From NCBI RefSeq assembly GCF_013122565.1, contig NZ_CP053258.1: a stretch of 64,000 bases of DNA. One strand, written 5' to 3'. Source of the DNA: Escherichia coli. GTDB taxonomy: Bacteria > Pseudomonadota > Gammaproteobacteria > Enterobacterales > Enterobacteriaceae. The position numbers and the translations under genes were made by a program. The notes under the pieces are model-generated. The model was not told where the DNA came from and made no database searches. It saw only the letters and a list, made by a program, of their open reading frames with translations. Positions 59,605 through 61,988 of the stretch are shown piece by piece (the first letter of the stretch is position 1; each line of letters begins with the position of its first letter).

Positions 59605-60411
59605 ATGATCGAAACGTTGCTTGAAGTGCGTAATTTAAGTAAAACGTTCCGCTACCGGACCGGCTGGTTTCGTCGTCAAACCGTAGAAGCGGTAAAACCC
59701 TTGAGCTTTACGCTACGTGAAGGCCAGACACTGGCGATTATCGGCGAGAATGGTTCGGGTAAATCGACGCTGGCAAAAATGCTGGCGGGAATGATAGAAC
59801 CTACCAGCGGCGAGTTATTGATTGACGATCATCCGCTGCATTTTGGCGATTATTCCTTCCGTAGTCAGCGTATTCGCATGATTTTTCAGGATCCTTCGAC
59901 CTCGTTGAATCCCCGTCAACGTATCTCGCAAATCCTGGATTTTCCACTGCGTCTGAACACCGACCTGGAACCGGAACAGCGTCGTAAACAGATTATTGAA
60001 ACGATGCGTATGGTTGGGCTGCTACCGGATCACGTCAGTTACTATCCGCATATGTTGGCCCCCGGGCAAAAACAGCGTCTGGGTCTGGCGCGCGCGCTGA
60101 TATTGCGCCCAAAAGTCATTATTGCCGATGAAGCCCTCGCCTCACTGGATATGTCGATGCGTTCGCAGTTGATTAATCTGATGCTGGAGTTACAGGAAAA
60201 ACAGGGCATTTCGTATATTTATGTTACCCAGCATATCGGAATGATGAAGCACATTAGCGACCAGGTGCTGGTGATGCATCAGGGCGAGGTTGTCGAGCGA
60301 GGCAGCACCGCGGATGTGCTGGCATCACCGCTGCATGAACTCACCAAACGGCTGATTGCCGGGCATTTTGGCGAAGCATTAACAGCGGATGCGTGGCGTA
60401 AAGATCGCTAA
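59605..60411 (+). CDS. sapF: ABC ATPase SapF (268 aa)
   Basis: Walker A is GENGSGKST. Matches remembered SapF. Confidence 0.95.
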   Translation: MIETLLEVRNLSKTFRYRTGWFRRQTVEAVKPLSFTLREGQTLAIIGENGSGKSTLAKMLAGMIEPTSGELLIDDHPLHFGDYSFRSQRIRMIFQDPSTSLNPRQRISQILDFPLRLNTDLEPEQRRKQIIETMRMVGLLPDHVSYYPHMLAPGQKQRLGLARALILRPKVIIADEALASLDMSMRSQLINLMLELQEKQGISYIYVTQHIGMMKHISDQVLVMHQGEVVERGSTADVLASPLHELTKRLIAGHFGEALTADAWRKDR

Positions 60412-60438
60412 TTTTCTGAATCCTCCTTCCAGATTATC

Positions 60439-60481
60439 CACCTCATTCTGACAAGAGATTAAATCTTGTCAGAATGAGGTG
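60439..60481 (+). promoter_or_regulatory. Perfect 18-bp stem / 7-nt loop hairpin spanning the ycjD SD and GTG start
   Basis: CACCTCATTCTGACAAGA-gattaaa-TCTTGTCAGAATGAGGTG. The right arm contains GAGGTG, which is the SD plus the start codon at 60479. Confidence 0.75.
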
Positions 60482-60832
60482 ATGGATAAAATAAAATCAA
60501 ATGCGCGTGATTTAAGACGCAATCTCACTTTACAGGAACGAAAGCTCTGGCGATATCTTCGCAGCCGACGTTTTGGTGATTTCAAATTTCGCCGTCAACA
60601 TCCGGTGGGGAGCTACATTCTCGATTTTGCTTGCTGCTCGGCGCGTGTAGTCGTTGAGCTGGATGGTGGGCAGCATGATTTGGCAGTTGCCTATGATTCC
60701 AGGCGCACTAGCTGGCTTGAGTCGCAGGGCTGGACCGTGCTGCGTTTCTGGAATAACGAGATTGATTGTAATGAGGAGACGGTGCTGGAGATTATTCTGC
60801 AGGAACTGAACCGCCGGTCACCCTCACCCTGA
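60479..60832 (+). CDS. ycjD: DUF559 (Vsr-like endonuclease fold) protein YcjD (117 aa, GTG start, or ATG at 60482)
   Basis: MMDKIKSNARDLRRNLTLQERKLWRYLR... matches remembered YcjD. Confidence 0.88.
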   Translation: MMDKIKSNARDLRRNLTLQERKLWRYLRSRRFGDFKFRRQHPVGSYILDFACCSARVVVELDGGQHDLAVAYDSRRTSWLESQGWTVLRFWNNEIDCNEETVLEIILQELNRRSPSP

Positions 60833-60880
60833 AAGGGCGAGGGGGCCGACCGAGCCGAATAGCTGTTGTGGTGAAAACAT

Positions 60881-60950
60881 GGAGACAGTGCTGGAGAATA
60901 TTCGGCAAGGTCTGAACCATCCCAGCCATCGCCATAAAAGGGTTAGGGGC
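60881..60950 (+). repeat. Degenerate tandem copy of the ycjD 3' end (DUF559 C-terminal remnant)
   Basis: By hand alignment, 60881-60918 matches 60775-60812 at 32 of 38 nt (ETVLENIRQGLNH versus ETVLEIILQELNR). Each copy is followed by AAAGGG(C/T)(G/T)AGGGG. Confidence 0.65.
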
Positions 60951-60995
60951 TGTATGAGCCTGTTTGTTGCTGGGGTAACAATATTTGCACAATAC

Positions 60996-61035
60996 GGTCC
61001 CCTCGCCCCTCTGGGGAGAGGGTTAGGGTGAGGGG
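60996..61035. repeat. GC-rich imperfect palindromic intergenic repeat (possibly BoxC family)
   Basis: GGTCCCCTCGCCCCTCTGGGGAGAGGGTTAGGGTGAGGGG. It is related to CCCTCACCCTGAAAGGGCGAGGGGG at 60820-60847, which overlaps the ycjD stop. The family name is from memory and uncertain. Confidence 0.5.
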
Positions 61036-61199
61036 AAAAGCGCCCACCCTGCCGCAGCCTGCTCCGGTCGGACCTGGCAACTATAGCTACTCACAGCCAG
61101 GTTGATTATAATAACCGTTTATCTGTTCGTACTGTTTACTAAAACGACGAATCGCCTGATTTTCAGGCACAACAAGCATCAACAATAAGGATTAAAGCT

Positions 61200-61988
61200 A
61201 TGGGTTTTCTTTCCGGTAAGCGCATTCTGGTAACCGGTGTTGCCAGCAAACTGTCCATCGCCTACGGTATCGCTCAGGCGATGCACCGCGAAGGAGCTGA
61301 ACTGGCATTCACCTACCAGAACGACAAACTGAAAGGCCGCGTAGAAGAATTTGCCGCTCAATTGGGTTCTGACATCGTTCTGCAGTGCGATGTTGCCGAA
61401 GATGCCAGCATCGACACCATGTTCGCTGAACTGGGGAAAGTTTGGCCGAAGTTTGACGGTTTCGTACACTCTATTGGTTTTGCACCTGGCGATCAGCTGG
61501 ATGGTGACTATGTTAACGCCGTTACTCGTGAAGGCTTCAAAATTGCCCACGACATCAGCTCCTACAGCTTCGTTGCAATGGCAAAAGCTTGCCGCTCCAT
61601 GCTGAATCCGGGTTCTGCCCTGCTGACCCTTTCCTACCTTGGCGCTGAGCGCGCTATCCCGAACTACAACGTTATGGGTCTGGCAAAAGCGTCTCTGGAA
61701 GCGAACGTGCGCTATATGGCGAACGCGATGGGTCCGGAAGGTGTGCGTGTTAACGCCATCTCTGCTGGTCCGATCCGTACTCTGGCGGCCTCCGGTATCA
61801 AAGACTTCCGCAAAATGCTGGCTCATTGCGAAGCCGTTACCCCGATTCGCCGTACCGTTACTATTGAAGATGTGGGTAACTCTGCGGCATTCCTGTGCTC
61901 CGATCTATCTGCCGGTATCTCCGGTGAAGTGGTCCACGTGGACGGCGGTTTCAGCATTGCTGCAATGAACGAACTCGAGCTGAAATAA
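61200..61988 (+). CDS. fabI: Enoyl-ACP reductase FabI (262 aa)
   Basis: [40 protein letters not shown]... matches remembered FabI. Confidence 0.98.

Follow-up and report, generated by a model that had tools for sequence, protein, structure and literature searches.

The ycjD gene of Escherichia coli encodes a small predicted nuclease of the DUF559 family and ends within a repeat of the BoxC/PIT/TMECO family, while a second, intact repeat of the same family lies ~170 nt downstream in the opposite orientation. The locus was examined in a window of 64,000 nucleotides (the whole stretch of DNA analysed, contig NZ_CP053258.1 of assembly GCF_013122565.1), and the association is no accident of E. coli: the coupling between nuclease gene and repeat is family-wide, resides in the DNA and extends across phyla. 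Judged from sequence comparison, the repeat-bracketed relatives of ycjD in many phyla suggest that nuclease and repeat work as a pair, and a partnership between the DUF559 nuclease and the BoxC/TM repeat, resembling either the RAYT/REPIN arrangement or a free-standing homing-endonuclease gene, is the probable explanation. The BoxC repeats themselves are known; their coupling to a DUF559 nuclease gene is new with respect to the open-access literature searched, in which no paper joining DUF559 or ycjD to BoxC/PIT/TMECO repeats was found.

BoxC repeats consist of a C-block, a loop, a G-block, 3 nt, and a further G-block, in the published pattern CCCTCNCCC-N3-6-GGGNGAGGG-N3-GGGNGAGGG; the order C-G-G is called TM(+) and the order C-C-G TM(-). 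Known from the early 1990s onwards, they adopt triplex structures in vitro and often occur as inverted doublets of type A and type B, with 23 copies in K-12; the loci are unusually unstable, polymerases stall at the elements in vitro, and TMECOs were described as always intergenic, with mobility functions never found nearby (Holder et al. 2015, PMC4666352). The first descriptions, as credited in that paper, include the sequencing of envM (= fabI) by Bergler et al. 1992, which concerns the same locus as the elements at ycjD, and the roots of the family are there placed in 'BoxC' and in the 'PIT elements' of Maher's group (Hoyne/Maher 2000). The GC-rich palindromes at ycjD are BoxC/PIT/TMECO repeats, an identity that had escaped the initial annotation of this DNA. 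The sequence of the complete TM(+), CCCTCGCCCCTCTGGGGAGAGGGTTAGGGTGAGGGG, corresponds letter for letter to entry 9 in Table 1 of Holder et al. 2015 (PMC4666352) and folds with -12.4 kcal/mol (z = -3.1); the larger palindrome originally placed at 60996-61035 is real, with the exact element occupying 61000-61035. The TM(-) at the end of ycjD belongs to the same family in the other orientation and retains two of its three blocks in this strain, namely a C-block CCCTCACCC (60821-60829) and a G-block GGGCGAGGG (60835-60843) on either side of a TGAAA loop (60830-60834); as single-stranded DNA it folds with -10.7 kcal/mol (z = -3.3). Loci L002 and L003 carry 12 extra nt (CCCCAACCCTCT), which yield a full three-block TM(-), CCCTCACCC-CAA-CCCTCTCCC-TGAAA-GGGCGAGGG, built as an exact mirror image of the TM(+) layout; an article on the eefRABCD operon (PMC12817139) mentions this 12-nt difference but does not interpret it. 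The ycjD stop codon, TGA at 60830-60832, sits in the loop of TM(-), as had been recognised at the outset. Whereas the copies in the literature are intergenic and lack a mobility or nuclease gene, this one supplies the last codons and the stop of ycjD, contrary to the 'always intergenic' of Holder et al. In E. coli the repeats lie downstream of ycjD only, and the gene has no flanking terminal inverted repeats.

The coupling was quantified at 80 DUF559 loci from species-representative genomes (Gamma-, Beta-, Alpha- and Deltaproteobacteria, Melainabacteria, Chloroflexi, Elusimicrobiota, Spirochaetes), 78 of which were usable for counting, with a detector that requires a 9-nt C-block, a loop of 3-9 nt and a complementary G-block, with an optional third block; within the whole window its output comprised the elements at the ycjD locus alone. 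A hairpin started between -15 and +130 nt from the domain end in 67 of the 78 loci, against a background of 0.025 per such window, and a full C-C-G TM(-) was present in the same interval in 57 (background 0.008). Per locus, 1.18 hairpins were counted in the 250 nt upstream of the gene and 1.32 in the 250 nt downstream, as compared with 0.026 per 250 nt away from it and zero inside it; the nearest upstream element was usually a TM(+) and the nearest downstream element usually a TM(-). In most non-enterobacterial loci, inverted repeats of 36-60 nt with 85-100% identity bracket the gene (42/42 in Lysobacter, 53/55, 47/49 and 57/61 in other examples), giving a unit of ~440-500 bp. This TM(+)-gene-TM(-) unit is a single-gene insert found at differing chromosomal places; the 440-bp unit of Lysobacter (L019, 9921-10360), with its perfect 42-nt inverted repeats, lies 1 nt past one stop codon and 7 nt before the next start. 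Gene-less copies are dispersed in the same genomes as singlets, as doublets in either order (often inverted) and as tandem arrays, and distant copies most closely resemble the gene-adjacent copy of their own locus in 14 of 61 cases, where 1/59 is expected. An independent screen of genes that overlap inverted repeats likewise found an excess of DUF559 among them (odds ratio 14). The association between DUF559 and the repeats, flagged as speculation at first, has become the strongest result, and other DUF559 genes of many phyla do end at the same kind of repeat.

What is conserved at these gene ends is a DNA element and not a peptide, because both stop position and reading frame vary. Of 59 loci, 13 have their first in-frame stop ahead of the element, 10 within it and 36 past it; the DUF559 open reading frame enters or crosses the element in 46, and each of the three frames is used for the start of the first block (22/21/16). 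The YcjD core without its tail was also used as query in an exhaustive search of 1.84 billion representatives, which returned 24,513 representative clusters at E <= 1e-3. Repeat-like tails, e.g. PSPRPSPIEGEGE, PHPNPLPQGERG and PLPNPSPARGEGL, occurred in 61 of the 107 top representatives with at least 10 residues past the domain, and in 29 of 1,455 control open reading frames of the same genomes (2%). A six-frame DUF559 profile search of 92 loci recovered two convincing extra fragments only and not the second copy in the window. One fragment, in a member of the Elusimicrobiota (L061, 10528-10647), covers profile positions 8-47 and lies ~220 nt downstream of the main gene; the other, from Melainabacteria (L023, 17868-17930), covers positions 77-97 on the opposite strand, and both may be remnants of further units.

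Within the Enterobacteriaceae, almost all homologues with 57-68% identity to YcjD terminate in ...PSPRPSP* (120 best homologues; Enterobacter, Klebsiella, Kluyvera, Lelliottia, Leclercia, Phytobacter, Scandinavium, Franconibacter), and this tail corresponds to translated CCCTCNCCC-CGN-CCCTCNCCC, the loop providing the stop codon. The DNA bears this out: the gene leads into a full TM(-) in Enterobacter, Klebsiella variicola and Kluyvera, and a TM(+) comes 7-80 nt further on. The module of gene, TM(-) and TM(+) occupies different sites, namely sapF|fabI in E. coli, hemW|yggN in Enterobacter and Leclercia, cysP|yfeX in Klebsiella, Kluyvera and another Enterobacteriaceae genome, rsmJ|uspA in another Enterobacter, and the interval between an ATP-binding cassette (ABC) transporter binding-protein gene and metG in Serratia. 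The Buttiauxella homologue at bcsZ|GGDEF-EAL has an element upstream and none at its 3' end. Two Leclercia species (L016 and L012) carry DUF559 proteins 56% and 65% identical to YcjD at the same hemW|yggN site, and their repeat types are swapped: one combines a TM(-) with loop TAA and a CCG-type TM(+), whereas the other shows the opposite arrangement. As the proteins differ markedly and the repeat types are exchanged at one and the same site, replacement of the module is suggested rather than simple vertical descent.

The partial tandem duplication of the ycjD 3' end within GC-rich structured repeats, as described in the initial annotation, was confirmed, with an extent of 106 nt and not 38. 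The 38-nt block at 60775-60812 (GGAGACGGTGCTGGAGATTATTCTGCAGGAACTGAACC) recurs at exactly the reported spacing of 106 nt, at 60881-60918 (GGAGACAGTGCTGGAGAATATTCGGCAAGGTCTGAACC), with 32/38 identical positions. With both strands of the window considered, the next match of the 38-mer reaches 23/38, a degenerate pattern covering both copies gave 0 matches in 100 shuffles, and the binomial probability of >=32/38 somewhere among 128,000 positions is estimated at ~3e-9. Both copies lead into AAAGGG(C/T)(G/T)AGGGG, as had been stated (tgAAAGGGCGAGGGGg and taAAAGGGTTAGGGGc). The homology continues beyond the block, 60775-60880 and 60881-60986 being 72.5% identical over 106 nt; the 38-nt block is thus the best-kept part of a 106-nt tandem duplication whose unit comprises the last ~45 nt of ycjD, the GC-rich element and ~35 nt of spacer (Table 1). 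Unit 2 is a decaying, non-functional copy of unit 1. Its TM(-) relic at ~60921-60950 (CCCAGCCATCGCCATAAAAGGGTTAGGGG) has lost the ability to fold (z = 0.07), and a more complete relic, TCACTCTCACCCCAGCCATCGCCCTGAAAGGGTTAGGGGG, is found in L003. The view that the second copy still encodes a DUF559-like C-terminus stands insofar as its translation, METVLENIRQGLN..., is similar to the end of YcjD, EETVLEIILQELN; Pfam returned no match for the 50-residue open reading frame (60879-61031). Tandem Repeats Finder did not report the duplication because the units are too diverged, and an Rfam scan of 60300-61300 gave chance-level matches only, which indicates that there is no RNA family in this region. 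In other E. coli lineages the period of the duplication is 118-119 nt.

Table 1. Features of the ycjD locus (positions in the 64-kb window)
Feature	Position	Strand	Description
ycjD	60482..60832	+	116 aa from ATG 60482; DUF559, Vsr-like PD-(D/E)XK nuclease domain
Tandem unit 1	60775..60880	+	last 19 ycjD codons, truncated BoxC-type element, 36-nt spacer
TM(-), BoxC/TMECO	60818..60844	+	C-C-G orientation, 12 nt lost; pattern match, 0 expected by chance
Tandem unit 2	60881..60986	+	decayed copy; 38-nt block 60881-60918
TM(+), complete BoxC/PIT/TMECO	61000..61035	+	C-G-G, type 'A mm'; = TMECO no. 9, K-12 MG1655

The BoxC search, a census of the ycjD 3' block and the comparison of the ycjD-fabI spacer were extended to 5,426 complete E. 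coli genomes, of which about 3,376 carry ycjD with this spacer. In the remaining ~38% the slot between sapF and fabI is taken by the 8-kb eefRABCD efflux operon. No empty site was found in E. coli, the genomes without ycjD carrying eefRABCD, and the detector found no BoxC-type elements at the borders of the operon. Its division between phylogroups A/B1/C and B2/D/E/F/G has been published (PMC12817139), and the split between ycjD and eefRABCD in the 5,426 genomes agrees with it. In L010 (9162-17180) and L001 (FDAARGOS_144, O157:H7) the slot encodes a major facilitator superfamily (MFS) protein, an outer-membrane factor, a resistance-nodulation-division (RND) protein, an adaptor and a TetR protein. 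E. coli has one ycjD, and no genome holds more than two copies of the 38-nt block, or of a 71-nt version of it, all of them at the ycjD locus; this speaks against the original proposal of recombination between DUF559 gene ends. Since the block is restricted to this locus, the other ~20 BoxC copies of a genome are devoid of a DUF559 end, and the idea that BoxC copies in general carry one, put forward initially as a repeat bearing the DUF559 C-terminus, was rejected.

Comparison of the spacer across strains revealed the 12-nt variant described above, the loss of a unit and units of another period. In strain HS (L092, compared with window positions 60750-60880) precisely 106 nt are missing, the crossover having taken place within the 38-nt block, and this leaves a hybrid ycjD with the C-terminus of copy 2, recorded in RefSeq as a pseudogene with missing C-terminus. 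Because HS has lost exactly one unit, the two tandem units still recombine. The same copy-2-type C-terminus as in the HS hybrid occurs in several database proteins of 129-158 aa; it is carried by P0012, P0015, P0022 and P0097. In the divergent allele L002 (MFDS1019527, 1823-2048) the units have a period of 119 nt, the 12-nt deletion being here in the second, and are 84% alike with nearly identical 3' halves, whereas orthologous units of different lineages are only 76-78% alike; this speaks for gene conversion (concerted evolution) or for a duplication that arose there independently.

When the locus was used as a blastn query, a median of 18 BoxC places was obtained per E. coli genome, and up to 31. 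Genomes with ycjD have 15-29 repeat places and genomes without it 1-20, many of them 1-4, a split that follows the phylogroups and is thus confounded by phylogeny. The per-strain TMECO counts of Holder et al. (PMC4666352), grouped here by phylogroup, are 18-30 for A/B1/C (one at 13), 10-11 for E, 13 for D, 6-7 for F and 1-2 for B2; at 18-30 with ycjD and 1-13 without, these published counts agree with the present survey. Four of the five K-12 doublets have the order TM(+), 16-27 nt, TM(-) (coordinates in PMC4666352), and such a (+)(-) doublet is the gene bracket without the gene.

A more specific proposal can be formulated from these sequences, albeit tentatively, its chances being put at somewhat short of even. 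YcjD-type DUF559 proteins would be the missing enzyme partner of the BoxC/PIT/TM repeats, constituting a second nuclease-repeat symbiosis, independent of RAYT and present in many phyla, in which a Vsr-like, probably structure- or mismatch-reading nuclease cuts the folded repeat and thereby drives its copying, tandem amplification, homogenisation and instability; TM(+)-gene-TM(-) would act as the autonomous form, from which the scattered doublets, devoid of the gene, would derive. Under the partnership judged probable above, the nuclease would recognise the repeat as a folded hairpin or triplex, or as a duplex, and nick or cut it; the breaks would be repaired, or replication restarted at them, and in the process repeats would be copied, duplicated, deleted or made uniform and the unit with the gene would now and then be moved. 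The duplicated units at ycjD, their collapse in HS and their homogenisation in L002 would then be by-products of instability and not a functional device, and the same may hold for tandem arrays elsewhere. Two such arrays, in which three to four BoxC-like hairpins alternate with one recurring short spacer, lie far from any DUF559 gene in Buttiauxella (L017, 15598-15728) and in a member of the Rhodocyclaceae (L041, 3004-3136), and are similar to the BIME-type REP arrays.

The nearest functional analogue is the RAYT/REP-REPIN system (Nunvar 2010; Bertels and Rainey 2011; Ton-Hoang 2012). In both cases a small gene, single-copy in E. coli, for a DNA-cutting enzyme (predicted in the case of YcjD) is flanked by short palindromic repeats found across the genome singly or as inverted doublets, the sequence of the repeat differs from lineage to lineage, and E. 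coli lineages without the gene have fewer repeats, although for BoxC this contrast is confounded by phylogeny. On the other hand, YcjD is a predicted Vsr-like PD-(D/E)XK nuclease and RAYT an HUH/Y1 transposase, and BoxC is a C/G-rich, triplex-capable repeat of three blocks, in contrast to the GTAG-tagged hairpin of REP; since both enzyme class and repeat differ, ycjD with BoxC is not a member of the RAYT/REPIN system. With insertion sequences and miniature inverted-repeat transposable elements (MITEs) the DUF559 unit shares its size of ~450 bp, terminal inverted repeats of 36-60 nt, a single gene and the existence of gene-less copies composed of both ends; it differs in having no recognisable transposase (DDE, HUH, serine or tyrosine) or target-site duplication and in the internally palindromic nature of its ends. 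As to the nuclease, Vsr, DUF559 and the I-Bth0305I-type fold have been grouped together (PMC3424549). I-Bth0305I (PMC3239194) exhibits this catalytic fold class in a selfish, site-specific DNA-cutting role, and its coding sequence is located in a group I intron that interrupts a phage gene, whereas YcjD-type genes are free-standing between repeats. The nuclease domain of Vsr is homologous to that of YcjD, and it is a matter of speculation that the one-mismatch hairpins (the 'mm' types, with many copies) represent the kind of lesion that a Vsr-type enzyme reads. There are differences here, too: no cytosine methyltransferase gene is found next to ycjD in the loci examined, and YcjD belongs to the Pfam family DUF559 and not to the Vsr family proper.

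Several observations weigh against a partnership of nuclease and repeat. We know of no strand-transfer activity for a lone PD-(D/E)XK nuclease, which makes strict transposition unlikely, and no target-site duplications or direct repeats were seen on inspection outside the inverted repeats. The upstream inverted copy is absent in the Enterobacteriaceae, and the other BoxC copies of E. coli bear no DUF559 remnant. Lineages without ycjD still hold repeats (11 in O157, 13 in strain 042, 1-2 in B2), and the correlation between ycjD and repeat number amounts to one or two phylogenetic contrasts (A/B1/C vs the rest). For the ranking of the 80 loci the SPSP tail had been part of the query, with a possible bias towards loci with an in-frame element, a bias countered by the spread of the first block over all frames and by the tail-less search. 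Finally, PIT elements had no in vivo effect on replication, transcription or conjugation in earlier work, according to the summary by Holder et al. (PMC4666352).

Among the other explanations, the one that fares best, though it is regarded as unlikely, holds that DUF559 represents a selfish, free-standing gene for a homing endonuclease which inserts itself into pre-existing inverted doublets; the repeats would merely be its landing site, would have spread by other means and would gain nothing from the nuclease. The position of the gene between TM(+) and TM(-), the order of most gene-less doublets of E. coli with their short spacers, fits this explanation, as do the near-perfect inverted repeats around the gene and its different loci in related genera, and a Vsr-like homing endonuclease has its precedent in I-Bth0305I (PMC3239194). 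However, E. coli has ~5 doublets and ~20 copies with one ycjD, so that homing is not active there, the gene of the Enterobacteriaceae stands beside a (-)(+) pair and not within one, and the spread of the repeats themselves is left unexplained.

It appears quite improbable that the elements act in cis as terminators, mRNA-stabilising hairpins or operators of the DUF559 gene, the genome-wide copies being unrelated, convergent hairpins. It can be said in favour of such a role that the ribosome-binding site and start of E. coli ycjD lie in a separate, perfect 18-bp hairpin. The terminator scan, however, returned nothing at 60818-60844 or 61000-61035, neither element is followed by a T-tract, and earlier experiments, as cited in PMC4666352, revealed neither promoter nor terminator activity; a terminator role is thus unsupported. 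Moreover, gene-flanking and dispersed copies are of the same sequence family, and neither the third block nor the inverted pairing of upstream and downstream copies would have a role.

Coincidence combined with slippage is held to be very improbable as a full account. An intrinsically unstable BoxC element would have landed by ycjD, the duplication would have arisen by replication slippage, and the nuclease would be irrelevant. The variability of TMECO loci and the stalling of polymerases in vitro (PMC4666352), the hairpin arrays in L017 and L041 that have no DUF559 gene, and the confinement of the 38-nt block to the ycjD locus are all in line with this, and slippage may well explain the origin of the local duplication; it cannot account for the 35- to 90-fold enrichment of elements at DUF559 ends in 78 loci of many phyla or for the conserved PSPRPSP tails. 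The least credible explanation, that the C-rich blocks are kept for the proline/serine-rich C-terminal tail of YcjD with the palindrome as a side effect, can draw on a PSPRPSP that is almost invariant in Enterobacteriaceae when the rest of the protein is ~60% identical, and was rejected by the analysis of frames and stops at the 59 loci, by an Enterobacter homologue (L013) that stops immediately before the element, and by the mirror copy upstream of the gene, outside any coding sequence.

If the partnership of DUF559 nuclease and BoxC repeat is real, it provides a candidate enzyme for the repeats, whose origin and spread have so far been unexplained, and a candidate substrate for the nuclease, which belongs to a very large family, and the coupling gives each of them a testable function, and does so in E. 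coli K-12, for which a deletion mutant and the purified protein are within easy reach. It would also represent a second RAYT/REPIN-like arrangement with an unrelated enzyme, which bears on the persistence of short bacterial repeats. In practical terms, many annotated DUF559 proteins have spurious N- or C-terminal extensions from translated repeat, and the repeats generate hybrid or pseudogene alleles such as that of strain HS. N-terminal extensions that are translated repeat, e.g. ...LHLQGEGKG and ...LSPQGRGAKF, were seen in P0128, P0135, P0149, P0184 and P0195; they are probably annotation artefacts, since the annotated start has been placed ahead of the 5' repeat.

The assignment of YcjD itself is based on profile searches, with E = 8.5e-49 and 164 bits for Pfam PF04480 (cut-off 20.6) and 266 bits for the NCBIfam equivalog PRK09767 (cut-off 218). 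DUF559 and MTES_1575 are its only Pfam matches, with no transposase domain and no IS200/IS605-like HUH tyrosine transposase, and a solved homologue is PDB 3HRL, an 'endonuclease-like protein' (E = 2.3e-27). Residues D48, E59, D61, R38, R75, R88, W90 and N91 are invariant and Q64/H65 nearly so in 43 diverse sequences. An AlphaFold model from the single YcjD sequence had a confidence (pLDDT) of 48 and was set aside, and the PADLOC models matched 0 families, lending no support to a role in a defence system. The gene is preceded by an in-frame GTG at 60479 and is enclosed by the sapF stop at 60411 and the fabI start at 61200.

The 18-bp inverted repeat between sapF and ycjD (60439-60481) is perfect, has a loop of 7 nt and folds as single-stranded DNA with -19.7 kcal/mol (z = -9.1); its 3' arm holds the GAGGTG ribosome-binding site and abuts the start codon of ycjD. 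Its left arm, CATTCTGACAA, is partly kept ahead of the homologue in Kluyvera, although that gene occupies another site; this inverted repeat may thus be part of the ycjD module, and it perhaps occludes translation of ycjD or substitutes for the absent upstream repeat. An element of the IS5 family, ISKpn26, interrupts the interval from sapF to ycjD in E. coli HH194M (L011, 9231-10402), near this palindrome. Insertions also occur within the repeats of other bacteria. The DUF559-flanking inverted repeats of Legionella anisa (L045, 9837-9983 and 10353-10499) are 147 nt long and identical at 140/148 positions, the hairpin loop of both copies containing the same ~36-nt AT-rich segment, with ~75 nt of outer flank shared; nested insertions that split the element were likewise observed in L018, L026, L042, L076, L079, L086 and L087.

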